Sequence record: PQ429080.1
From: Escherichia phage vB_VIPECOTPH05B
Reading direction: 5' to 3' (one strand)
DNA: 44,015 bases
Shown: piece after piece, positions 4,432 to 41,694 of the stretch
Layout: the number at the start of each line of letters is the position of its first letter
How positions within the stretch are numbered: position 1 is the stretch's first letter
Position numbers and translations under genes: made by a program
Notes under the pieces: model-generated
Databases searched by the model: none
Seen by the model: only the letters and a program-made list of their open reading frames with translations
Told to the model about the DNA's origin: nothing

Positions 4432-7400
4432 TTAATCGTCTCCGAAGTTATTGATGATAGCTCGCGTAGGTGCGAATTCCTGTATTAGCGGCACCTGCTT
4501 AGTGAAGGTCTTTATATCCATATTACCGGTAGCCAGGTCCTGTACGGCCCCGAGCAACCCTGTGACGTAACCCATAGATGCCAACGAGTGACGAGGGGAA
4601 TCTCCCAGGAAGATATCCTGCAGTAAGGATACCCCGCCGATGGCACTCATACCCATTACGGACTCGCTGATGAGTTTCTGAGTGTCTACGTCCTTACCAT
4701 CCATGCCATGCTTAGCCATAGTAGCCAGCAGCATTAACGGGAACTGGTACGCCATAATATGGGCTACGCCAATCCACCCAGCGTCGTTCAGCTCTCTGCG
4801 CAGAATCTTGTTAGTGGCTGCCAGTGCGAAGCTCTGGTACCCTACAATGACTTTGCCGATAGGATTGAACTGTGCAAAGTGCGAGGTCTCTCCAGTACGA
4901 ATCTGCTGTACCAGGTAGTCCATCATACGCGTCCCCACAACCTCAACTTGCATCTGCAGGTCCGGCTGGAACATAGCGCCCGGGTTAGCCTTGTTGGCAG
5001 CGATAGCGCGGTCAGCAACATCGCGAGTAAGCCCGAAACGCTCCAGACGCTTAAACGCCTCAGCATCGCCCTTGAACATCTGAGTAAGCTCGTCCGCCAC
5101 AATACCGGAGTTCAGGTTCACCTGTAGCCGGTGCACCATGCTCATACCGTTGACGTGACGGGCAGCCTGCCCAACGTTCTGGGTGACGTTGAACCAGGAG
5201 GCCTGACGGGTCAGGTCCAGGTTATCGTCAGCGTACGTATTCAGCCAGCGGAAGCGCATCTCCTTCTGAATATTACCCCGCAGCACGGTATCTAGACGAG
5301 CAGCCATATCCGGGGTCTTGATAGCCACGGCACCTTCCTTGAACCAAGGCTGGTCACGCATACTGCGCAGCACTCTAGCCATACCGAACTCCTTCATAGC
5401 CAAAGCAGTATCGGTCAGCTGATACAGGCCGGAGTTCTTAAGCATAGTGGCGTTTGCCATATTCCCAGCTGCACGCAGCAAGTCCGGAAGCTGCCCAGCG
5501 TCAGCAGGTGCCCCACCCAGGATAAAGTCGATGGTGTCATTGACGGTCTTCTCCCACTTGGCGGAATCCGCTAGTACGTGCTTAGACTCATCAATCATCT
5601 TGGCGAGCTGTCCCAGGTCCTGTACGCCTGCATAGGCCATACCTACACGTCCAGACATACGGTTAGTGTACCCGTGCATAACCTTGGCTACGTCAGTATC
5701 CATCAGGTCCTGCATGCGCATGCTCTTACCGTTCACCAGATACTCTTTATCCATGTTGAACCGAGTACGCTGGCGCAAGTTCCGCGCAGGGGATGTGCTG
5801 CCGGATTCGCGTACGTTACCAGCCAGGAAGCTCTGGATTGCAGACTCTTCTACACCGGCGCTGCGCATAGCCATAACGACCTCGTCGTTACCCATGCCGT
5901 TAATCAGCTGCTTCCACATAGGGCCAGCCTGCCCAGCACGGCCATTGTAGATGCCGTCAACCATCTCCTTAGCAACACGCTGCACTACCTCTGACTCCAT
6001 GCTCGGGTACACATCCCGCAGGGCGGACCGGAACAGGGCGCGGTAGTCATCCAGGGTATTGCCTTGTGCGATACCTTGGCGCATCTTGTCGTAGCTGTAC
6101 TGGCGCGGGAAGTAGTAGTCGGATTTAACCAACGCACCATCATCCACTAAACCGGCATTGAGCATATGCTCGTGCCACTTGCTAGCCCAGCCAGAGCGGC
6201 GATAGGCGTCAACCAGTGGAGCAATCTCTGCGTCCGGCACCGGCACAGCGCGGCCGTTTACGTCAGCGCTGTAGGCAGCATCCAGGTACTTGCTCAGGCG
6301 GTCTTCCAGCGCAGCCCGCTCAGCGCGGAAATTACTACGATGGAAGAAGCGTGAGAGTACACCTACACCCTTATCCTTCAACGCGCCCAGGATAGCATCT
6401 TCCACTACGCTGGCGCGAGCATCCATCTCCAAAGTTAGGTTACGCTTGTAGTCTACCACTGACGGGCGACGGCCGCCTACTGCGGACGCATCCGACACTA
6501 GCAGTTTAGCCAAGTCTTCGTTGCCTTGGGCGATATTATCGTACAGGGCAAACATAGTGGAGAGCTTCTTCTTAGCGCCGTCCAGCATAGCTTGGGCGCG
6601 CTTAGCCTCATTGAGGGTGGTGCTGCCCGCCAGGTCCTGGAAGGCTTCGCTACGGAAGCTCTGGGCTTGGTCTGCATAATCCTTAGCTGTCCACTTAACT
6701 GCGTCCTCATACGCATCCAGGACATCTTCCAAGGCAGAGCCTTTTGCCTTGATGCCCAGAGCGTTCATGATGTACTCACCCAGTTGGCGGAGCATACTCT
6801 TACCGGTGGGAGACTGCGTACGTGCCAGGTGCTCAACCCACTCAGGGCTGTCGCCTAAGCCTGCCAGCATCTCATGCACATTACTTGCGTAATACCGCAT
6901 ACGCGGTGTCAGGGTGGAGTCAGCCGCAATAACAGCGCGCACTTCCTCCAGGCGTTTAGCAATCTCGGGATTACTGTCAATGGCGCGCGCAGTAGCAGCA
7001 TGAATCAGTTCGTGCACGGCCACCTTGCTTGTATCTGCATCCATAGCGCGCAGCGCATCGCCGACTGTAGTCCAGGTGCTGCCGTTAGCTTGCTTAGGCG
7101 CACGCAGGGATATCTCTCCCCGCTTAGCTAAATCTTGTTGTGCGTAAGTGTAGCGGCTACGGTTTGCGGAGCCTGCTACCAGTTTAAAATCAATGTCATT
7201 TACAGCATCGCCCAGCGTGTACAGAATAGCCTTCTGTCCTGCTGTCAAGTGCTCAGACTTCTTCAAGAACTGAACTACGTGCTGTGCTTTCATGTTCACG
7301 GAGGCGGTATTGTTTCTCGATACTTGGATGCTTTCATCCAGTGTCTTAGTGAGAATTTCCTCTCCCTCTCCTACTCCGGTAACATTAGCATCCCTCGCTG

Positions 7401-8130
7401 TACGAGTTGTAGGCGCTTCTGGGTCGAACATGGGCTCACGCCCAGTACGAGCCTTAGCGGCAGCTTTAGCAGCCCTAGACATATCCCAGAGCTGGTCTAA
7501 CCCAGCTACGCCCGCTATCAGTGCAGTTACCGCGGCGGACTGGCCCAGTTGGTCCTGTGCATAGAACGCAGTGCCTACATCAGCAGCGCGGATAGCGGTA
7601 CGTGCAGCTAAGCCCGCGCGGCCAGCAATACCGGCGGCAGACATCGGGGCCAGGATGAACGGGGAGTCGCCTACCAACATACCCGCGAACCCGGCTACTG
7701 TGTTGTCGGCCATTAAGCGGTCACGGTCACGTTGCTCAAGCATCTGCTGCATGCGGTAGTTGTAATCTTCCACAGACACGGAGTCGTGCAGGTACTCAAT
7801 CTCTTCCTGATTCGGAGCATACAGCTTAGCCCGAGTATCGCTACTCAGGGTCTGCTTAGCATTAAAGTTCGGGTCTCGGTCAAATGCCGGAGCAGAGGCC
7901 TTGCGGATAGCTGCGGCGATTATGCTGTTGCCCATACCTGACGCAAAGCTCTCTGCGGCTGTAGTAGCCGGAGTCTTGGCTTGCGCTAGTAATGAGGCAC
8001 GCTCCAGTGCGTTCAGGCCGTTGTCCCCGGCATCGTTCCAATCTACGCGCTCAGGCGCAGGTTTAAGTGTTGCGCCCTTAGCAGAATCCTTTTCCTGTGG
8101 ATTCGGTTCTTGGTTCAGAAACTGAGCCAT
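4432..8130 (-). CDS. Internal virion (core) protein, largest (T7 gp16 / phiKMV gp37-like)
   Basis: 1232 aa, Ala-rich and predicted helical; third of three consecutive large genes between tail tube B and tail fiber. No transglycosylase motif recognised by eye. Confidence 0.7.
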   Translation of the reverse strand: MAQFLNQEPNPQEKDSAKGATLKPAPERVDWNDAGDNGLNALERASLLAQAKTPATTAAESFASGMGNSIIAAAIRKASAPAFDRDPNFNAKQTLSSDTRAKLYAPNQEEIEYLHDSVSVEDYNYRMQQMLEQRDRDRLMADNTVAGFAGMLVGDSPFILAPMSAAGIAGRAGLAARTAIRAADVGTAFYAQDQLGQSAAVTALIAGVAGLDQLWDMSRAAKAAAKARTGREPMFDPEAPTTRTARDANVTGVGEGEEILTKTLDESIQVSRNNTASVNMKAQHVVQFLKKSEHLTAGQKAILYTLGDAVNDIDFKLVAGSANRSRYTYAQQDLAKRGEISLRAPKQANGSTWTTVGDALRAMDADTSKVAVHELIHAATARAIDSNPEIAKRLEEVRAVIAADSTLTPRMRYYASNVHEMLAGLGDSPEWVEHLARTQSPTGKSMLRQLGEYIMNALGIKAKGSALEDVLDAYEDAVKWTAKDYADQAQSFRSEAFQDLAGSTTLNEAKRAQAMLDGAKKKLSTMFALYDNIAQGNEDLAKLLVSDASAVGGRRPSVVDYKRNLTLEMDARASVVEDAILGALKDKGVGVLSRFFHRSNFRAERAALEDRLSKYLDAAYSADVNGRAVPVPDAEIAPLVDAYRRSGWASKWHEHMLNAGLVDDGALVKSDYYFPRQYSYDKMRQGIAQGNTLDDYRALFRSALRDVYPSMESEVVQRVAKEMVDGIYNGRAGQAGPMWKQLINGMGNDEVVMAMRSAGVEESAIQSFLAGNVRESGSTSPARNLRQRTRFNMDKEYLVNGKSMRMQDLMDTDVAKVMHGYTNRMSGRVGMAYAGVQDLGQLAKMIDESKHVLADSAKWEKTVNDTIDFILGGAPADAGQLPDLLRAAGNMANATMLKNSGLYQLTDTALAMKEFGMARVLRSMRDQPWFKEGAVAIKTPDMAARLDTVLRGNIQKEMRFRWLNTYADDNLDLTRQASWFNVTQNVGQAARHVNGMSMVHRLQVNLNSGIVADELTQMFKGDAEAFKRLERFGLTRDVADRAIAANKANPGAMFQPDLQMQVEVVGTRMMDYLVQQIRTGETSHFAQFNPIGKVIVGYQSFALAATNKILRRELNDAGWIGVAHIMAYQFPLMLLATMAKHGMDGKDVDTQKLISESVMGMSAIGGVSLLQDIFLGDSPRHSLASMGYVTGLLGAVQDLATGNMDIKTFTKQVPLIQEFAPTRAIINNFGDD
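7369..7388 (-). promoter_or_regulatory. Conserved element TTACCGGAGTAGGA, copy 3 (inside the largest internal virion protein gene)
   Basis: 14-nt exact match to the core of the other two copies, same orientation, followed by GAGGGAGAGG. Confidence 0.25.
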
Positions 8131-8180
8131 AATATCTCCTAAAAGAATTTTGATAAGGGGAGGCCCCGAAGGGCCTCTGG

Positions 8181-18929: not shown

Positions 18930-19366
18930 TCTGACCTCACTAAATGATAAGTTGTATTGTATGTGTTATCCGATGCACCTCGGCTAATGGCGATACGCCC
19001 AGCCCGCATACTCTTAGCTATTGCGCGAAGGCCCTGCATAATCACAAGTACCGCCTTACTGTTACCCGGCTTCAATACGAAGAAGTCTGTATACAGCACA
19101 GGCTCTACGTAATGACAGTCCTCTACAGCTTCTGGGTAGTAGCTGACAGCACCGACTAAGTCGCCTTGGGAGTCATAGACTCCTAGTATATACTGTTTAC
19201 CCAGTATGCTGCCCAGTACTCTCCAGTAGTGCTGCTCTGGAGCTAGGCCCCGACTAATGCCGTGGCCCAGTTCGTGCAGTTGCCTCACTGCGTCTGTAAT
19301 GTCGTTAGACTTATACAGAATCTTGAGAGTGTAATCGGAAGTTTTACTAGTGTGTTTTAACTTCAT
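18926..19366 (-). CDS. Hypothetical protein (146 aa), first gene after RNAP
   Basis: ATG with GGAGTAGGA immediately upstream; that upstream sequence is part of a repeated element (see findings). Confidence 0.45.
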   Translation of the reverse strand: MKLKHTSKTSDYTLKILYKSNDITDAVRQLHELGHGISRGLAPEQHYWRVLGSILGKQYILGVYDSQGDLVGAVSYYPEAVEDCHYVEPVLYTDFFVLKPGNSKAVLVIMQGLRAIAKSMRAGRIAISRGASDNTYNTTYHLVRSE

Positions 19367-19388
19367 TCCTACTCCGGTAACTTCATTT
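19367..19388 (-). promoter_or_regulatory. Conserved element AAATGAAGTTACCGGAGTAGGA, copy 2 (candidate phage-RNAP promoter)
   Basis: Between the RNAP stop and the first late-side gene; 21 of 22 nt identical to the copy at 41059..41080. Confidence 0.35.
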
Positions 19389-19389
19389 A

Positions 19390-21858
19390 TCAGCAGAAGA
19401 AGAAAGGTGATTCCAATACCTGCCGGATGTCCAGAGTACCAACCTCAGGCATATCCAGGTCCGTCAAATCCGCCCCGGCGGCTGCCGCCGCGCGAGTGAT
19501 ATCCCCAAGCAGGTCGTGCTCTTCATAGAGGCGCACAAACTGTTCTCGGATGTGTCGGTGCAGAGCGTCAACATCGGCTGCATGTGTAGCCAGGGAGTCG
19601 TGAATCGGCACAATGTCCAGACCCTCGGCGGCACATAGAACCATCATCAAGTGTGTACTATCCAGGCTATGCACAAAGTTCGGGGCAATCCCAGAGGCTG
19701 CCTTGCGCTTGTTGCAGGTCTTGAAATCCCGATTATGCACGCGCATGATTGTGAGGTTCATACAGTCAATTCGTACCCGCACTTCTTCACGCTGTGTGTA
19801 GCGGTTCATTACGAGCCCACCCAGTGGCGTATACCACTGCAGGTGCTGGCTTGCCGGTACACGCCTAGCGAGGTTCTGCAAGTACGACATAACTGCCGCA
19901 GCAGCAGGGTTTGCCTCCTCGATAGCGGCGCGCATACGCGGAGCCAGGTAGCACGACAGATTCCATAGACTGTTAGTGTCGGTACCTTCATACCCCTCAG
20001 CGCAAGCGCCTTCAAAGATGTAGTCACTGCAGCTGCGCACCGTGGCGCTGTAGAAGTAGGTCATACTGGGGCGCTTGGTCATACTGCGGGTGATTTCGTT
20101 CTCTCTCCAGTACGTACTTTGGATAACGAAATCCTCCTTGTCCAGGTCCAGTATCACCTTCTCGTCCGTACGGCGCTTCACGTCCATGTACAGGTCCGCT
20201 TTCTTGTCGTTACCCTCCCAGTACAGGTTCGTTAGACGACCTCCCACAGGGTCTCTCAGGAGCGCTGAGAGGTGTTGCCCACCTGAGTTTGTAGCGTCCA
20301 TAGCAACTGGGATTCGGCTAATATGCTCTTCTGGGCATCCAGAACGCACAGCATTAACCAGATCGATAGCGGCCGCCAGAAAACACCAGGGGCTGTCTGC
20401 CTCGGCAAAAGCATGGCAATCAAACGGTGAAACCACAAGCTCTTCGAGCGCTGCAAAGTTCGCATCAACCCAAGCTGCGCGGTCTTCGAATAGGGTTTTG
20501 TCATAACCAAAGCATGTGGCGACGTGTACCTTGAGCCAGAATAGTCCCCGCTCACCCAGAGGTTTTCCTCTGCCAAACTCAAGAAGGGCTTTCTGCAAAT
20601 CAGAACCTTGGGGGTGCAGCGAGGACTTGAAGTACAGGCGGTAGCGCCAGTCCACACAAGTCGGGAAGTACAGTGCTTTCTCATCTTTGAATTCCTCTGC
20701 CATTTCCAACGTAGTCAGAAGGCTGCGCAGTTGCGATACACGCTTACGGTCGGCGCTGTACCATAGGGACATACGCGTCTTCCACTCACCGAAGCGGTCA
20801 AGCTCTTCCTCGGTGTAGTTCTCTTTCGGAACCCCGTCCAGATACCACTCCGGTTTCGGCTCCGGTACTGAGCGAGGCATACCTATCCCAACACCCAGGG
20901 CCCGTGCTTCTTGCACCAGTTCAAGTATGCGCTTATTAATACGGTATGGGGTTTCCTGTGCCTTATTAAGCGCTTTTTTGATGCCATCCGCGGACTTAAA
21001 TGCTTCCGCTACTTCACGGAGACGAGCTCTGTCAATGTGCGAGTTATGATAGGTTCCGCGATTGTCGATAGTGGTGAGGTACCCACCGTCCCACAGAGTA
21101 GTGTGCTGCACCGGCGGTACCAGCATAGGCGGCTTCATGGTTACAGTGTCAGCGGACTCTACCAGTTTCTGGAAGGCCTCCATAACGTCGTCAGCCGGAT
21201 AGAGCATGCTCAGATTCCCGCTACAGTTCTTCCACTGGAACAGTCCCGTCTCAAACACTGCGGCACACAGCAGACGCCCTACGGAGATGTTCTGGGCATT
21301 GGTCCAAGGCTCGTGCCCGTAGTGTACGTTCTCGGCACTGGCACGGAGCGTACGCAGGATGTGCGTAGGGGACTTCGTACGGCGCTCTGTGAGGTACTCA
21401 TACACGCGGTCCATGTACGCTGGGGCTACGTTGCGTAACTGCAGAGCCAGTAGCTCTGACTGTACGTTTCTGCCTAGTGCGGACATTACAGCCTGTGCAG
21501 TCTGACGGCGACTGGCGGACTCGCCGGGGGCGACGCTGAACGCCTCAAACATTGTGCACAGGCTCAGGGTGGTCAGGACATCCAAGGGGATTAAGCGCAG
21601 GAACCGGCGGTACTTCCCACCTATGCCAGGGGCTTTGACATTTCGCATCTCATCTATAGCGGCAGCAGCCACTTCGTATGCCGAAGTGAGCATACGCTGC
21701 GTCATAGGCAGGTTCATAATACCACCGTTCTGCAACGCGTCCGTAATCAGCTTACGTGCCCGCTCGATTCCGCGAATCTTATAGGCCTCTTCAAGCTCCA
21801 GCTGGCGTTTCACCAGTGCTTCCTCTGGTACTACAACCGTATTCAGGGCGCTAATCAT
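19390..21858 (-). CDS. Single-subunit DNA-dependent RNA polymerase (T7 RNAP family)
   Basis: 822 aa; T7-RNAP-like motifs (VAMDATNSGGQHLSALL; late PNFVHSLD/H-D region); located at the end of the replication block, directly upstream of structural genes. Confidence 0.95.
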   Translation of the reverse strand: MISALNTVVVPEEALVKRQLELEEAYKIRGIERARKLITDALQNGGIMNLPMTQRMLTSAYEVAAAAIDEMRNVKAPGIGGKYRRFLRLIPLDVLTTLSLCTMFEAFSVAPGESASRRQTAQAVMSALGRNVQSELLALQLRNVAPAYMDRVYEYLTERRTKSPTHILRTLRASAENVHYGHEPWTNAQNISVGRLLCAAVFETGLFQWKNCSGNLSMLYPADDVMEAFQKLVESADTVTMKPPMLVPPVQHTTLWDGGYLTTIDNRGTYHNSHIDRARLREVAEAFKSADGIKKALNKAQETPYRINKRILELVQEARALGVGIGMPRSVPEPKPEWYLDGVPKENYTEEELDRFGEWKTRMSLWYSADRKRVSQLRSLLTTLEMAEEFKDEKALYFPTCVDWRYRLYFKSSLHPQGSDLQKALLEFGRGKPLGERGLFWLKVHVATCFGYDKTLFEDRAAWVDANFAALEELVVSPFDCHAFAEADSPWCFLAAAIDLVNAVRSGCPEEHISRIPVAMDATNSGGQHLSALLRDPVGGRLTNLYWEGNDKKADLYMDVKRRTDEKVILDLDKEDFVIQSTYWRENEITRSMTKRPSMTYFYSATVRSCSDYIFEGACAEGYEGTDTNSLWNLSCYLAPRMRAAIEEANPAAAAVMSYLQNLARRVPASQHLQWYTPLGGLVMNRYTQREEVRVRIDCMNLTIMRVHNRDFKTCNKRKAASGIAPNFVHSLDSTHLMMVLCAAEGLDIVPIHDSLATHAADVDALHRHIREQFVRLYEEHDLLGDITRAAAAAGADLTDLDMPEVGTLDIRQVLESPFFFC

Positions 21859-26453: not shown

Positions 26454-26651
26454 CTAGCGGTTCTTGAGTGCGGACTTAATGCCGATAGCCGCAGCTGCCG
26501 CCACTCCACCCGCCGCCAGAATTGCCAACAGCAAGGCGATGCCGCCGTAGAATGGAAGCAGTACCCACCACCAGGACCAGGCGATAACTCCGGTCAGTTT
26601 CAGGGTTACAAAGATAAGGCCCAGTACAGAACAGATTCCCATTTTCATCAT
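26454..26651 (-). CDS. Small membrane protein (two predicted TM helices)
   Basis: Start taken at the internal ATG cluster (ATGATGAAAATG) just after the phosphoesterase stop, with GAGGTG upstream; sequence GICSVLGLIFVTLKLTGVIAWSWWWVLLPFYGGIALLLAILAAGGVAAAAAIGI. Confidence 0.45.
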   Translation of the reverse strand: MMKMGICSVLGLIFVTLKLTGVIAWSWWWVLLPFYGGIALLLAILAAGGVAAAAAIGIKSALKNR

Positions 26652-26661
26652 CACCTCGATA

Positions 26662-27687
26662 TTATTTAGAACGACCAACCCAACGACCATCGTCGTCGAG
26701 CAGCATCGGAATTAACTGCGGGCAACCCTCAGTGATTACCATCACACCCAGGATTGGTTTCTTGCGGGTGAGCCTGCCATAAGCAAAGGCCATACTCTTG
26801 CGGTCAATTAGACACCCTGCGTACGCCCCGAAGTACAACGCCATGCTGCTAGCCGCATATTGGACCTCGAAGCGGCCATGCTCATGCCCCAACACCAGAG
26901 AGGTGCGCTCATGGGATGCATTGAGCATGAAATCACCGCTGACTTGATGCTGGAACCGTACAGGCCCCAGCGGTGTATTGAGCACCCAAGCATCGGCCCA
27001 CGACCACGCCGGAGCACCGTGCTCAGGGAATAGGATATCCCGGTACTTCTTGATAAATTGCACTGGCAAACCGTGAGCTTTAGCGCGGCGATATACGAGT
27101 GAACCATGATTGGAATCGCAAACCAGTAGGTTCGGGAATAGTTCATGCAGCTCCTCCAGTACGAGCTTGGCTTTCTCCAGCTCAACCCCGGCGCTGTCCA
27201 GGTTAGGGTCAGAGTCATGGAAGCTGATAGCGTGCCCGTCGGTTTCGTCACCAACCTGCACTACCATGTCCGGGCAGTACGCATCACGTACGCTCTCAAG
27301 GAATGGCATAGCGTCTACGTGGGTATACGGAGCGTGCAGGTCTCCTACCACCAGGATGCGGTGGCACATGTCCGGCACCTTTGTATTCCCGATATCGTCC
27401 GTTGGGCTTGGTTGGATTAGCTTACGCGCCGCCTGCAGCCCGCGGTTGGCACTGGCCTTGCTGCCCTTGTTATCCATGAATATGCTGCGCCAGTAGCGCA
27501 CAAGCTGGCGGGATACACTAATGTCCGTATCCACATCCCCACGGTTGTCCAGCTCCTGGTTGTAGTACTGCGCGGCCAGGGCGTTGTCAAGGTACTGACC
27601 TAGGATTGCCTGGTGCTGCTCTTTGGTGAATAGTTTTATTAGACTGACTCTAGCCAAGGTTGCCTCTCTTGTGTTGTTCCTACTCAT
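26662..27687 (-). CDS. Calcineurin-like metallophosphoesterase with an N-terminal extension of about 100 aa
   Basis: 341 aa; motifs VVGDLHAPY, GDETDGH, DSNHG, GHEHGRF match the metallophosphatase signature; no obvious SD before the ATG. Confidence 0.75.
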   Translation of the reverse strand: MSRNNTREATLARVSLIKLFTKEQHQAILGQYLDNALAAQYYNQELDNRGDVDTDISVSRQLVRYWRSIFMDNKGSKASANRGLQAARKLIQPSPTDDIGNTKVPDMCHRILVVGDLHAPYTHVDAMPFLESVRDAYCPDMVVQVGDETDGHAISFHDSDPNLDSAGVELEKAKLVLEELHELFPNLLVCDSNHGSLVYRRAKAHGLPVQFIKKYRDILFPEHGAPAWSWADAWVLNTPLGPVRFQHQVSGDFMLNASHERTSLVLGHEHGRFEVQYAASSMALYFGAYAGCLIDRKSMAFAYGRLTRKKPILGVMVITEGCPQLIPMLLDDDGRWVGRSK

Positions 27688-27818
27688 ATCACATTAATTT
27701 GCTGAGAATCACAGAATCAAGCCAGAGTCAACAAATAATTTTATTTAATTATTTAGTTGACCCTAGTGTATTTCCATGCTACCCTAACCCCCTACACCAC
27801 TCAAGGATCCACCTATCA
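27688..27818 (-). promoter_or_regulatory. AT-rich intergenic region with imperfect inverted repeat (GTCAACAAATAA ... TTATTTAGTTGAC)
   Basis: 131 bp with no ORF in a genome where most genes overlap; AT content well above the rest; repeat arms at about 27727..27738 and 27749..27761; TTGACT/TTGATT -35-like hexamers on the minus strand. Confidence 0.35.
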
Positions 27819-28037
27819 CTATTCCACGATAAGCTTGTACTCCCCGGCGAAGAAGGTAACACCATCCCCTGGTTCTTCTGAACCGCCTGGGTTAACAAGC
27901 TCCACCTCCCACGTGACGGGGTCGTACCCGATAACCCGATGCTGTGTGCCCGGGGCGTAATACAATGCCAGCTTAGGGTCGATTGGCTCTGGCCCAAGTT
28001 CCAACATCTCCACAATACTGCCAGGTTTGATAGTCAT
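27819..28037 (-). CDS. Hypothetical protein (72 aa)
   Basis: ATG overlaps the DNA polymerase stop (ATGA). Confidence 0.45.
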   Translation of the reverse strand: MTIKPGSIVEMLELGPEPIDPKLALYYAPGTQHRVIGYDPVTWEVELVNPGGSEEPGDGVTFFAGEYKLIVE

Positions 28038-30391
28038 TCTACTTTCTCCTTACTGTACATACTCGTACCCATCTCAGCCTCTGCTGGGAACGGGACCTCA
28101 CCAATGATACCGTAGTTAGGCCAGAGCTGGTGGATACGCTTAGGTGCGTCCTCCATGCACTGCTTAACCAGCAGGCTCGCCTCACGTCCAACCTCCGGGT
28201 TGGCGCTGTCCAGATACAATGCATCGTGTACGTTCGTAATCAGGCACACCTGATTGTCGAACCAGTCACGGGCCAGGAGTGCACGCAGAACCATACCAGC
28301 CGCCACCGCCATCAGGAAGAATGCTTCCCCCTGGCACCAGTAGTTAGCCATCTCGGTTTCCTTGTAGTCCATGACCTTCTGCTTACGCTGCCCAGGCACA
28401 ACCTCCTTCCACTGCTCCTTCTGGCGGAAGCTATAGCGGGCACCGGCTGGGCTGGTCCACGTCCCAATGCGATACAGTCGGTAGCTGCCGTCGTCCGCCT
28501 GCTCGCGGTACATGCGCCCCTCGTTCCCGGTACGCTCTACCTCTTCCTTGACAACAGCACGGAATCCGATGGTGTCTGGAAACAGCTTCGCCTCGTTATC
28601 CAGGAACGACTGCGCATACTCCACTGTACAGCCTGTAGCAAACGCGATCCCTTTAGCCGTAGCCCCGTACTGTGCAGCAAAGCTGGGCGGCTTAATATCA
28701 GTACGCTGCTGCTTCCAGTACTTGTAGTCCGGTCCGTCTGGGTTATGGCAGAGGTCGTACATCTCCTCGTACGTCTTACCTTCCTTGAACGCTAGGCGAT
28801 AGCAGTGCATGTCCGTGCCCGCCTGTAGTAACCCCAATAATTTGCGGTCTCCAGTGTGAACACAAGACATAACCACTTCCAGGGCAGAGTAGTCAACCTC
28901 AGTGATACGACCAGCTTCTCCGAAACGAGAGGTGAACATCTGCTTAACCCGGCTTGTGCCATCGCGCGGTAGATTCTGGAGGTTCGGGTTAGAGCCCGAC
29001 AGTCGCCCGGTGACAGTGGCACAGGTGTTAAGACGGTGGTGGATAATACCTGAACCATCAGGGTTCTGAGGTATGACGTATTGAAGCATGCCCGAGGTCT
29101 TTTTAACTGACCCATCTTCGTTGTACTCCGTTCTCAGGTAATAGGTCCCTGTGTCTTTCTCTAGAGCACCTAACTCGTTTACCAATCGGCAGAGCTCGAA
29201 ACCTTGGCGAGCCAGTGCCTCCATTGCGTCAGTGCTGGTGCTGTATACTGGCGTACCGTCCTGCAGGGTGCGCGCCTGTCGGAACTCTCCGCGCTCTGCG
29301 TACTTCTCCCGGATAACTTCCGGAAGCTCCTGTATGTTCACCAGTCCCGGGCAGAAGTAAAGGTCATCCTCCCACTTGAGCTTCTCCTCGTCAGTGTCCA
29401 CTCGGAACACTTTAGGTAGGCCCTTGTTCTTCCCTGCTTTGTAGACTACGTAATTGTGAGGTCCAGAGACGTCCGTGCTTTCACATGGTACGAATGTTCC
29501 ATCAGTGCCCTGTACCAGATATGCGTCATACTTAACGTACTGCGGAGGGTCATAGGGTACCTTCTTGCGGTACTTGATAGGCCCGCCGTATACCAGTGCA
29601 GACATATGGAAGTCCGAGCCGAAGTTGAAATCCAGTGTCTCCGGCAAGTCCTTCGGGATGTACTGCTGCAGCTCCTGCTTAATCTCACGGATGCGCTGCT
29701 CCTGCTCCTCCTGGTTCTTGCGCGCAATTGGCATGTTCACGAACAGGCCGAACCATTGACAATAGCTCCAAGCTAGTACTGCCTCCATCCGTTCGTAGAC
29801 ATATTGCATCTGGTTGCGTTCGGCGAATAGGGCGCATTGCCCATAGAAGCACAGCCCGGTATTTGGCACGTCACCGTTGACAAGGTAATCGTGAAGCAGG
29901 TACGGGTCAATTTCGGAAGTCCGCTTTCCTTGCTCCCACAGTATCTTTACCCCATCGACTTTGTGCTGACCACCCCATTTTGGGGCGGTCTCATCTAGCC
30001 CCGGATACATCTCCTGGAAATCTGAGGCTATGTACTGCCCATGCTGCGTACAATATACGCGCCCGCCGCGCTTTAGGAAATCCTCAAAATGTTTTCTCTG
30101 ATATGAGAGGAACCAAGACACCTCGAAGCTGCTGTTGTGCGCGACTATCATAGTGCAGTGTTCTGGTATGGAAAACCACTGGTGCGGCCCCTCGTTGTCC
30201 GCCAGAAACTCAGCCTTGTTGTTGAAGCGAATACTGAATACGTCCCCTATATGCAACTGCCCGGCATCGTCCACCGTGTCTATGCGGTATGCGCTTTCTA
30301 CAACATAGTTATCGGGGCAGTACGGGGATGCTACGTTGCCGTAGTACTCAAAGTTCTCGACCTCTAAATCCACTATCATAATCTGGTACAT
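28034..30391 (-). CDS. DNA polymerase, family A (T7 gp5-like) with N-terminal 3'-5' exonuclease domain
   Basis: 785 aa; DnaQ-like exo motif near the N-terminus (IVDLEVENFEY) and Pol I-type polymerase motifs in the C-terminal half. Confidence 0.95.
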   Translation of the reverse strand: MYQIMIVDLEVENFEYYGNVASPYCPDNYVVESAYRIDTVDDAGQLHIGDVFSIRFNNKAEFLADNEGPHQWFSIPEHCTMIVAHNSSFEVSWFLSYQRKHFEDFLKRGGRVYCTQHGQYIASDFQEMYPGLDETAPKWGGQHKVDGVKILWEQGKRTSEIDPYLLHDYLVNGDVPNTGLCFYGQCALFAERNQMQYVYERMEAVLAWSYCQWFGLFVNMPIARKNQEEQEQRIREIKQELQQYIPKDLPETLDFNFGSDFHMSALVYGGPIKYRKKVPYDPPQYVKYDAYLVQGTDGTFVPCESTDVSGPHNYVVYKAGKNKGLPKVFRVDTDEEKLKWEDDLYFCPGLVNIQELPEVIREKYAERGEFRQARTLQDGTPVYSTSTDAMEALARQGFELCRLVNELGALEKDTGTYYLRTEYNEDGSVKKTSGMLQYVIPQNPDGSGIIHHRLNTCATVTGRLSGSNPNLQNLPRDGTSRVKQMFTSRFGEAGRITEVDYSALEVVMSCVHTGDRKLLGLLQAGTDMHCYRLAFKEGKTYEEMYDLCHNPDGPDYKYWKQQRTDIKPPSFAAQYGATAKGIAFATGCTVEYAQSFLDNEAKLFPDTIGFRAVVKEEVERTGNEGRMYREQADDGSYRLYRIGTWTSPAGARYSFRQKEQWKEVVPGQRKQKVMDYKETEMANYWCQGEAFFLMAVAAGMVLRALLARDWFDNQVCLITNVHDALYLDSANPEVGREASLLVKQCMEDAPKRIHQLWPNYGIIGEVPFPAEAEMGTSMYSKEKVE

Positions 30392-38461: not shown

Positions 38462-38490
38462 ATGAAACCTCATACTCCAGTTGCATTCAC

Positions 38491-38512
38491 ATAGCGCCCC
38501 GTAGGACGCTAT
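38491..38512 (-). promoter_or_regulatory. Conserved intergenic hairpin, copy A
   Basis: Minus-strand RNA AUAGCGUCC-UACG-GGGGCGCUAU: 9-10 bp stem with a UACG tetraloop; about 27 of 30 nt identical to copy B. Confidence 0.45.
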
Positions 38513-38522
38513 AGGCTTGCTA

Positions 38523-39471: not shown

Positions 39472-39518
39472 AATGCACCTCGTTGATTGTTGGTTGTTTA
39501 CTTATCGAATTACTTCAC

Positions 39519-39540
39519 ATAGCACCCCATAGGATGCTAT
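39519..39540 (-). promoter_or_regulatory. Conserved intergenic hairpin, copy B
   Basis: Same stem-loop as copy A; one stem base pair is G:C in A and A:T in B (both partners changed), so pairing is preserved. Confidence 0.45.
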
Positions 39541-39549
39541 AGGCTGTAA

Positions 39550-40879: not shown

Positions 40880-41694
40880 CCTTACATAGTGATGAGTAGC
40901 GTAACCATAGCGACGATATCCCGGAGGGATAGGAGCGGAGGTTACAAGATTCTAGGGATAGCAGCCTACTGCGTAGGCACAGGGCTATCCTAGTGAATAC
41001 CTAGTAGGGACTAGTAAGGACTAGTATTAAGTAGTGTGTATATAGTGCCCTAAAACCCTCCTACTCCGGTTACTTCATTTCATAATAGCTTTCGAATGAA
41101 AGTAAGAGCAAAGGGATAGCATTGGGATAGCGCTGGGATAGCGGCAGAGTGTGGATGTGCGCCCTAGTGGGGAGCGCGCAGCGTAGCATATAATTAGCAC
41201 AATGTAAAGCCCCAAGGATAGCCAGTGGATAGCCTAGTGCATACTAGGGATAGCACTAGGGATAGCACCACAGCGCACTAGCTGGCCCACTAGGCAGGCA
41301 CAAAATAAGCAAGGCAGAGCGCACCCCTATGGCCCACAGGGAGCGCACAGGGAGCGCCTAGTGAACGCACAGGGATAGCACCAGTGCCCCATAGAGCGCA
41401 CAGGAAGCCCTACAAGGCACGCACAGGCAAAGCCATAGGGTAGCACTAGCAATAGCCCTAGCGCAGCGCAGAGAGCCACTGAGGCCCACTGGTGCGCCCT
41501 AGCAGGCCCACCCAGTGCCCCCCCCCTAAATTGGCGCTAGGCACCCCCTATGGGGGCAATTGGGCGCGCTGAGGGTGAGGGACCCTGCCGCGTGAGTATA
41601 ATAAATTTCGGGTTCAGGTATAGACGTGCACCCGGATAGCCCCAGATAGCCCCACATAGACGCCCAGTGCTTACTCTAGTACTTACCCTAGCAC
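40880..41694. repeat. ORF-free repeat-rich region: at least 10 copies of GGATAGC plus CACAGGG/CACTAGG motifs, a C9 homopolymer and short tandem repeats; probable genome-terminus region
   Basis: No ORF of 60 aa or more on either strand across about 800 bp; GGATAGC at about 40956, 41114, 41125, 41136, 41216, 41227, 41248, 41259, 41373, 41634 (first three tandem copies spaced 11 bp); C-run at 41518..41526. Confidence 0.6.
41059..41080 (-). promoter_or_regulatory. Conserved element AAATGAAGTAACCGGAGTAGGA, copy 1 (candidate phage-RNAP promoter)
   Basis: 21 of 22 nt identical to the copy after the RNAP gene; lies in the repeat region upstream of the HNH gene. Confidence 0.35.

Follow-up and report, generated by a model that had tools for sequence, protein, structure and literature searches.

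A conserved intergenic region beside the DNA polymerase genes of a Drulisvirus genome as a candidate compound region of transcription control

The intergenic gap between the DNA polymerase operon and the metallophosphoesterase gene of Escherichia phage vB_VIPECOTPH05B is best read as a compound transcription-control region, in which a promoter for the phage RNA polymerase, an antisense promoter of host type and a conserved box would lie side by side; we put the probability of this reading at roughly 0.6. It draws on sequence matches, conservation patterns, covariation between genera and the dispensability of some of the parts, from which we infer the start sites and activity of both promoters in this phage. 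The T7-type RNA polymerase of the phage would recognize TAATGTGATATGAGTA on the minus strand and initiate at a G at 27680, producing a sense transcript with a 23-nt leader and a strong Shine-Dalgarno sequence ahead of the TTG start of the phosphoesterase gene. A GC-free tract and the left arm of an inverted repeat would form the upstream element and the -35 box of a backward promoter on the plus strand (TTGACC, 17-nt spacer, TGn, TACCCT), yielding a C-rich RNA opposite the 3' end of the polymerase operon, and the right arm would belong to a 26-nt conserved box. The phage promoter would head the block of genes that begins with the phosphoesterase gene and extends to that of the phage RNA polymerase, and could in this way exert feedback on synthesis of the polymerase.

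The stretch analyzed here (the window; 44,015 nucleotides, record PQ429080.1) is a complete genome of Drulisvirus (KP34-like, Autographiviridae, Slopekvirinae) with all of its genes on the minus strand. It is the reverse complement of GenBank PQ505478.1 in another circular permutation, with the terminase gene at 1-1857 on the minus strand; since the permutation differs, the ends of the window are assembly break points and not physical genome ends, and terminal repeats like those annotated in KpV48 were not located. The 1.5 kb surrounding the gap are 100% identical in Klebsiella phage vB_VIPKPNMC07C and four sibling isolates, and show 87-92% identity to many further Klebsiella phages. In transcription order, the DNA polymerase gene (28034-30391) is followed by a 72-aa ORF (27819-28037), the gap, the metallophosphoesterase gene (26662-27657) and, after about 14 small and nuclease genes, the phage RNA polymerase gene (19390-21858), all on the minus strand.

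An earlier note on this DNA had singled out 27688-27818 as an unusually long AT-rich gap and the only sizeable AT-rich spacer of the replication module. Both descriptions hold: GC content is 36.6% across these positions against 53.8% for the genome, and in the annotation of an identical GenBank record the spacer measures 161 bp, the largest between the primase and RNA polymerase genes, where the others reach 55 bp at most. The lower limit of 27688 was misplaced, since the phosphoesterase gene starts at TTG 27657 and the gap is hence 27658-27818 (minus strand). The ATG at 27687 lies within a conserved non-coding element and arises from a C-to-T change at a place where relatives carry GATACGAGTA (none of about 50 related loci has an ATG). 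TTG 27657 is preceded by the Shine-Dalgarno sequence AAGAGAGG and annotated as the start in GenBank, and it aligns with an ATG in relatives, which confirms it; the phosphoesterase gene of this strain should thus be annotated from TTG 27657 instead of ATG 27687. The substitution itself (27685-27687, minus strand) converts the conserved GATACGAGTA to GATATGAGTA, creating an in-frame ATG 30 nt before the real TTG that misleads ORF callers choosing the first ATG; it falls on position -6 of the putative promoter and is absent from all other loci examined, and five 100%-identical GenBank isolates share the stretch. Small ORFs within the gap, considered on both strands, were rejected as not conserved.

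Across 39 unique Drulisvirus sequences, aligned and compared by mean pairwise identity, the non-coding stretch 27658-27760 is far more conserved than the adjacent genes. Mean pairwise identity is 0.994 in the promoter-like element (27681-27696), 0.982 in the leader (27660-27680), 0.961 in 28 nt that include the conserved box (27705-27732) and 0.912 in the inverted repeat and AT tract (27727-27760), as against 0.65-0.72 in the coding DNA that flanks the gap. The value is 0.79 in the 8 nt around a variable linker (27697-27704); the linker itself, which runs from the conserved box to the promoter (about 27700-27705, minus strand), occurs in many variants of constant length (0 indels in the 39 unique sequences). 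Because conservation exceeds that of the flanking genes, with a freely varying patch of fixed length in between, several selected elements must reside in the gap. Some 240 GenBank records match the stretch, mostly in the part from GTTGACTCTGG to the start codon and nearly all at 90% identity or more.

The most conserved of these segments resembles a promoter for the phage's single-subunit RNA polymerase (TAATGTGATATGAGTA, then GG; 27681-27696, minus strand; genus consensus TAATGTGATACGAGTA). The strong promoter of KP34 has been mapped as T(A/G)ATGTTACAGGAGTA, with +1 at the next base, that is, after ...GAGTA (Lu et al. 2019, PMC6834552), and the KP34 map comprises three strong sites (near the left genome end, directly after the polymerase gene and in the structural region) and one weak site, the gap site not being reported (PMC6834552). 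When the KP34 16-mer was searched for with up to three mismatches, the window yielded three matches where 0.21 are expected. All three lie on the coding strand; those at 7372-7387 and 19370-19385 correspond as orthologues to sites mapped in KP34, and the third is the gap element. The gap element agrees with KP34 S1 at 13 of 16 positions and with the phage's own copies at 12 of 16; the mismatches fall at -10, -8 and -6 and, relative to the phage's own copies, also at -7. It is intergenic, on the coding strand and just upstream of a gene, with G 27680 at +1, 23 nt before the TTG. Four GAGTAGG sites occur on the coding strand of the window; all four are promoter-like and each is followed by GGA, and together with the KP34 start rule this points to the G at 27680 (minus strand) as the transcription start. 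The predicted 23-nt 5' leader (GGAACAACACAAGAGAGGCAACC; 27658-27680, minus strand) carries its Shine-Dalgarno sequence at 27663-27670, ahead of TTG 27657. The fourth canonical copy, with four mismatches, lies just upstream of the GAGTAGG at 41066 (about 41062-41077). The three canonical strong promoters of KP34 type, at about 41062-41077, 19370-19385 and 7372-7387 on the minus strand, read TGAAGTAACCGGAGTA, TGAAGTTACCGGAGTA and TAATGTTACCGGAGTA, each followed by GGA, and have C at -7 in this phage where KP34 has A.

Positions -10, -8, -7 and -6 are specificity positions in T7 promoters, and by this analogy use of the gap element by the phage polymerase may be poor or even absent. Since it deviates from the strong consensus at three of these positions, or at four by comparison with the phage's own copies, the gap element is probably a weaker, class II-like promoter. 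It shares with the KP34 strong promoters its genus, its length, the TAATGT upstream half, the GAGTA end, the +1 G followed by GA and a location on the coding strand shortly before a gene. Three bases set it apart, G in place of T at -10, T in place of C at -8 and, in place of G at -6, C (T in the window); it lies upstream of the polymerase gene in the DNA-metabolism module, and is more conserved than the strong promoters are. T7 class II promoters are likewise weaker consensus variants among DNA-metabolism genes, but they lie downstream of the polymerase gene, whereas the promoter proposed here lies upstream of it and would drive it. The earlier note had offered a strong promoter as one use of the gap and had pointed to the inverted repeat. 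A promoter is what we also favor, although at the downstream edge of the gap (27681-27696, partly beyond the limit of 27688 first given) and not by way of the repeat; its strength is contradicted by the three to four deviations at specificity positions and by the weakness of the one orthologue assayed (PMC9596486). Two published motifs were rejected as equivalents of the gap element, as they occur elsewhere: the KP34 "weak promoter" at 19418-19437, and the Eriksson 32-nt motif (AGCCTATAGCGTCCTACGGGGCGCTATGTGAA, palindrome-containing) as two minus-strand copies at 38486-38517 and 39514-39545. The latter motif was once proposed as a "Kp34likevirus" promoter or nick site, and in KP34 it gave no transcription by the KP34 polymerase in vitro.

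Of about 50 Drulisvirus loci examined, KP34 among them, only two do not read TAATGTGATACGAGTAGG at the gap element: this window, with its C-to-T change, and a single locus that has TGATG, a type of variation that also separates KP34 S1 from S2. Some relatives carry an additional inserted gene, for a Gp5.5-like H-NS inhibitor in KP34 and for HNH proteins elsewhere, which separates the phosphoesterase gene from the element; the element is then 316-466 nt upstream of the phosphoesterase gene and keeps its leading place in the operon. The strong promoter, represented by its post-polymerase copy, changes across the genus at -15, -13 and -7, and the gap element does not follow these changes but is fixed; this lack of covariation points to some extra constraint on the element. 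In the window itself, the gap element matches the phage's own strong promoter at 14 of 20 positions (P about 0.03 for a 140-nt segment). Our search of the literature found no mapping of transcription starts or of an origin in any Drulisvirus.

Between genera, the element does follow the polymerase. The sister genera have polymerases 60-65% identical to that of the window, with different promoters, and at -36 to -41 from the phosphoesterase start they carry an element resembling their own post-polymerase promoter: AGAAGTATCACTATAAGATA and AGAGGTATGACTATAAGATA in PAS7 (18/20), GAATTCCACGGTATAGTACG and GTGTTACACGGTATAGTAGG in L116 (16/20), AAGTAACACGTATAGGACAA and AGGTTGCACGTATAGAACAA in L159 (16/20), TAGAAGTATCACGAATAGGA and TAGAGGTTGCACGTATAGAA in phiKDA1 (15/20) and AAACATACTATAAGATAACA and AGTCACACTATAAGATAAGG in EM1 (locus L086; 15/20), the gap element being given first in each pair. 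These matches of 15-18 in 20 at the same position amount to covariation with polymerase specificity between genera, and in a comparison of 22-mers cognate pairs average 15.3 matches and non-cognate pairs 12.1. L086 is an elephant-dung scaffold and the source of the cloned EM1 polymerase, and the "ORF53 promoter" primer of that work, AATAGAAACATACTATAA, is exactly the L086 gap element. With EM1 polymerase this sequence had low but real activity in vitro, and two other candidates had none (PMC9596486); the orthologous site is thus a weak promoter in one relative. The EM1 element is a positional orthologue of the one described here, at the same intergenic site about 36 nt before the phosphoesterase start and with a TTGAC box and a hairpin upstream in common, but it belongs to another genus and to a polymerase of other specificity (SP6-like, ...ACTATAAG). 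An apparent SP6-like promoter consensus can also be seen in phiKDA1 (TAGAGGTTGCACGTATAGAA; L084, about 20735-20755, 21060-21080 and 395-415) and PAS7 (AGAGGTATGACTATAAGATA; L085, about 19215-19235); the three phiKDA1 candidates of the EM1 study are different sequences, inactive with EM1 polymerase. SP6 itself was rejected as a mapped reference, as its gene order differs and its phosphoesterase gene has no preceding promoter.

Upstream of the linker lies the conserved box (TTGACTCTGGCTTGATTCTGTGATTC; 27706-27731, minus strand; mean pairwise identity 0.961), which contains the right arm of the repeat. Conservation of this 26-nt box, which lies between the two putative promoters, extends to four or more lineages of related phages. 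In the window, phiKDA1 and PAS7 the pattern TTGACW-N12-YNTGAW has a single occurrence in the genome, at the box, and it is also readable in the gap sequences of EM1 (L086) and L116. In phiKDA1, PAS7-like phages and EM1 the box is followed by a stable hairpin of the sense strand, with its 3' arm adjoining the promoter. Its TTGACT was rejected as the -35 of a sense sigma-70 promoter, because no TAnnnT stands 15-19 nt downstream in Drulisvirus, phiKDA1, PAS7, EM1 or L116; the 17-nt position falls in the variable linker, and a consensus scan lists no site with TTGACT as -35. With no -10 hexamer at a usable distance in any lineage, the box is not a normal sigma-70 promoter. The scan's sole sense match (TGGAAA-17 nt-AATAAT) was also discarded, its -35 not being conserved in relatives. 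Sites for sigma-54, sigma-32, sigma-E, CRP, FNR, LexA and IHF, with consensus sequences compared by eye, did not fit the box across lineages, and its resemblance to the T7 class II pause signal ATCTGTT and to the phiKMV nick consensus is only partial and inconsistent.

A different sense promoter could nevertheless be drawn here for the host polymerase, with TTGATT (27720-27715), an 18-nt spacer and TAATGT (27696-27691), perhaps overlapping the phage promoter; it would drive the downstream genes, including the phage polymerase gene, before any phage polymerase exists. The GenBank record of KpV48 annotates a "promoter" here (TTGTTGACTCTGGCTTGATTCTATGAT), L116 has TTGAAT-18 nt-TAGAAT at the same place, and the variable linker, of constant length in the 39 unique sequences, would lie inside the proposed spacer; such an overlapping function could also account for conservation of the element beyond that of the strong promoters. 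The proposed hexamers, however, meet consensus at 7 of 12 positions and went unlisted by the scan, most of the supposed spacer is invariant, unlike a spacer, and phiKDA1, PAS7 and EM1 have no -35 there yet keep the downstream element. In every lineage, moreover, the TTGACT box is without a -10 hexamer 16-18 nt downstream. We regard a host sense promoter as unlikely.

On the plus strand, a candidate sigma-70-type promoter faces backward toward the DNA polymerase operon (27757-27785): a -35 TTGACC (27757-27762), formed by the left arm of the repeat, is followed after a 17-nt spacer by an extended -10, with TG at 27777-27778 and TACCCT at 27780-27785, and the predicted start lies at about 27792-27794. 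Directly upstream of the -35 is a palindromic 22-nt tract without G or C (AAATAATT-AAATAA-AATTATTT; 27733-27754), in the position of an UP element. The hexamers thus stand 17 ± 1 nt apart, with a TGn and an UP-like tract, as in sigma-70 extended -10 promoters with UP elements, which share the 17-18-nt spacer, near-consensus -35 and AT-rich upstream tract. The pattern recurs in 38 of the 39 unique Drulisvirus sequences, with TTGACC (once TTGACT), an invariant TACCCT and an invariant TG whose next base is C, T or A, around spacers of 17 nt (26 sequences) or 18 nt (12 sequences) that comprise 25 different sequences. Judged from the alignment, fixed hexamers and TG around a variable spacer are the pattern expected of an extended -10 sigma-70 promoter. 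It is unique in the window when both strands are considered (0.165 expected), and the Providencia phages PS3, whose polymerase is 51% identical, and PSTRCR_114, filed under the genus Kakivirus, have the same arrangement (TTGACT, 17 nt including TGC, TACCCT). The -10 matches consensus at 3 of 6 positions, and the scan did not list this promoter.

Conservation continues over the 35 nt downstream of the -10. The segment 27786-27818 (C-rich on the plus strand, G-rich in the sense) is conserved at 90% or more at nearly every position, with a mean pairwise identity of 0.78 against 0.65 in the adjacent coding DNA, and may represent the leader of an antisense RNA or else 3' untranslated sequence belonging to the gene upstream. 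We found neither a terminator nor a conserved ORF for the predicted antisense RNA, and a search for trans targets gave no other place in the genome with 10 nt or more of complementarity to it. In running opposite to the genes and facing the 3' end of an operon, the arrangement resembles lambda pO and its oop RNA; LUZ19 P001 is likewise an antisense promoter in a lytic phage, but of phage-polymerase type and at the genome end (PMC10914365). Elsewhere in the window, two near-consensus sigma-70 early promoters on the minus strand (TTGACA-17 nt-TAGATT, about 40292-40264; TTGACA-17 nt-TAACTT, about 40062-40034) match host promoters listed for other KP34-like phages.

Not all of these parts are needed. 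In five IMG/VR loci and twelve isolated phages, NTUH-K2044-K1-1 among the latter, an HNH endonuclease gene has taken the place of the AT tract together with the left arm and the antisense promoter; its TGA stop codon falls within the TTGAC box, and conservation restarts exactly at GTTGACTCTGG. The twelve isolates thus lack the antisense promoter entirely. Because the gene stands in their place in viable isolates, the AT tract, left arm and antisense promoter are dispensable and the inverted repeat is non-essential, and the conserved box and the phage promoter-like element are retained in every HNH-replaced phage. The loci with an HNH gene ending in TTGAC are L020, L033, L052, L065 and L075, with NTUH-K2044-K1-1, IME308, KMI3/5/6 and Kpp-9 in GenBank. 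As a hotspot of insertion, this intergenic site has taken up genes in other relatives too, there immediately downstream of the promoter: either an HNH gene or one for a Gp5.5-like H-NS inhibitor.

A more elaborate and tentative version of the preferred reading, to which we assign clearly less weight than to a compound control region as such, is that the gap acts as a two-way switch between two polymerases. A host promoter would fire backward into the DNA polymerase operon, its antisense RNA tuning or cleaving the replication-gene transcripts or priming leftward DNA synthesis; back to back with it, a fixed phage promoter of "ancestral type" would let the polymerase amplify its own gene; and the box would bind a regulator. 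The phage-specific promoters found in the phiKMV-like LUZ19 were confined to sites downstream of its polymerase gene, in the structural region, and to antisense orientation (PMC10914365), which weighs against the gap element as a phage promoter. If the gap element is a promoter, it would revise the view that the phage polymerase acts only downstream of its own gene in phiKMV/KP34-like phages, and would imply self-amplified expression of the polymerase. KP34-type polymerases are under development for RNA synthesis, and a fourth, fixed variant upstream of the polymerase gene would add a natural promoter variant of lower strength. If it is active, the host-type promoter on the antisense strand would be a rarity in the phage family. 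Apart from the promoter and annotation points, the gap is ordinary phage regulatory DNA, and its elements, as judged by resemblance, would belong to kinds already known, one being a variant promoter of the KP34 class and the other an antisense promoter of sigma-70 type.

The GC-free tract is also the feature that invites a reading of the gap as a replication origin, which the earlier note had proposed by analogy with T7. At 0% GC over 22 nt, 27733-27754 is the lowest point of the genome and would, like the AT-rich region of a T7-type origin, melt easily, and more so than any other place in the genome; among all 34-nt and 131-nt windows of the 44 kb, those of lowest GC content fall at the gap or overlap it. 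As an origin, the tract would be a DNA-unwinding element activated or primed by nearby transcription. It lies within the replication module and is flanked by two putative promoters; the repeat arms GGGTCAAC and GAGTCAAC put GTC on opposite strands and are possible primase sites, GTC-containing arms resembling those of T7 primase; and the sense strand just upstream is G-rich, as at some origins primed by R-loops. The likeness to the T7 primary origin is that of a phage promoter beside an AT tract in the early/middle region. At that origin, however, phi1.1A and phi1.1B transcribe into the AT-rich region downstream of them and the RNA is handed to DNA synthesis, whereas here the tract lies upstream of both promoters, is not transcribed from the phage promoter and has neither promoter reading into it. 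We found no iterons or direct repeats at the gap, sister genera that have the promoter lack the inverted repeat, and twelve viable isolates, NTUH-K2044-K1-1 included, have the HNH gene in place of the tract and left arm. The GC-skew analysis that had been suggested as a check gave a monotonic cumulative curve with no inflection at the gap, but in phages with unidirectional transcription such skew is not informative. Since T7 can do without its primary origin, a non-essential or redundant origin would be compatible with loss of the tract; with promoters that read away from the tract and no positive support for initiation here, we consider an origin very improbable.

The inverted repeat itself (27722-27765, minus strand) is real. 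Its outer arms (27724-27735 and 27753-27764) are 12 nt long, 83% complementary and separated by 17 nt, and the inner pair, AAATAATT and AATTATTT, is perfect over 8 nt with 6 nt between. The potential hairpin folds at -17.3 kcal/mol as a sense single strand (z = -8.0; equaled by 0 of 200 shuffles) and at -12.8 kcal/mol on the antisense strand. An imperfect inverted repeat had thus been correctly noticed, although the AT spacer of 10-14 bp ascribed to it is 6, 17 or 22 nt, depending on the choice of arms. On the promoter reading, the repeat is largely a by-product of two outward-facing TTGAC boxes that share an AT tract.

Read-through transcription could alternatively give the repeat a role as RNA, as an 18-bp AU-rich hairpin acting as an attenuator or as a processing or 3'-stabilizing site (RNase III-like) that would separate the polymerase operon from the promoter that follows, which is compatible with a promoter region. 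The greater stability of the fold on the sense strand, which is due to G-U pairs, counts in favor of such a role. In phiKDA1 and PAS7, too, a stable hairpin directly precedes the promoter (z -5.8 and -6.7), and pairing of the stem is complete (100%) throughout the PAS7 group, despite two double compensatory and three wobble changes. The covariation comes from only four PAS7-like sequences, however, and 16 of 500 shuffles score as high; between genera the hairpins differ in register and lack column-by-column homology, so that covariation can be assessed only within that group. The left arm is dispensable, and in L112 and L121 a changed base beside it breaks a pair of the stem and leaves TTGACC intact; because the change spares the -35 box and disrupts the pairing, the promoter reading is favored over the hairpin for the left arm. 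The stem is AU-rich, with neither a GC-rich stem nor a U tract, and is followed by UCUGGCUUGAUU; a scan for intrinsic terminators found none on either strand of 26500-29000. Rfam covariance models gave only chance-level microRNA matches (17-19 bits against gathering thresholds of 52-100). We doubt that an RNA hairpin is the function of the repeat. Far from the gap, in the short space before the gene for the large internal virion protein, there is a GC-rich hairpin (GAGGCCCTTCGGGGCCTC; about 8130-8180, minus strand) that, although without a clear U tract, is a possible terminator or processing site and is conserved in kind in phiKDA1 (GGGGCCTCGGCCCC).
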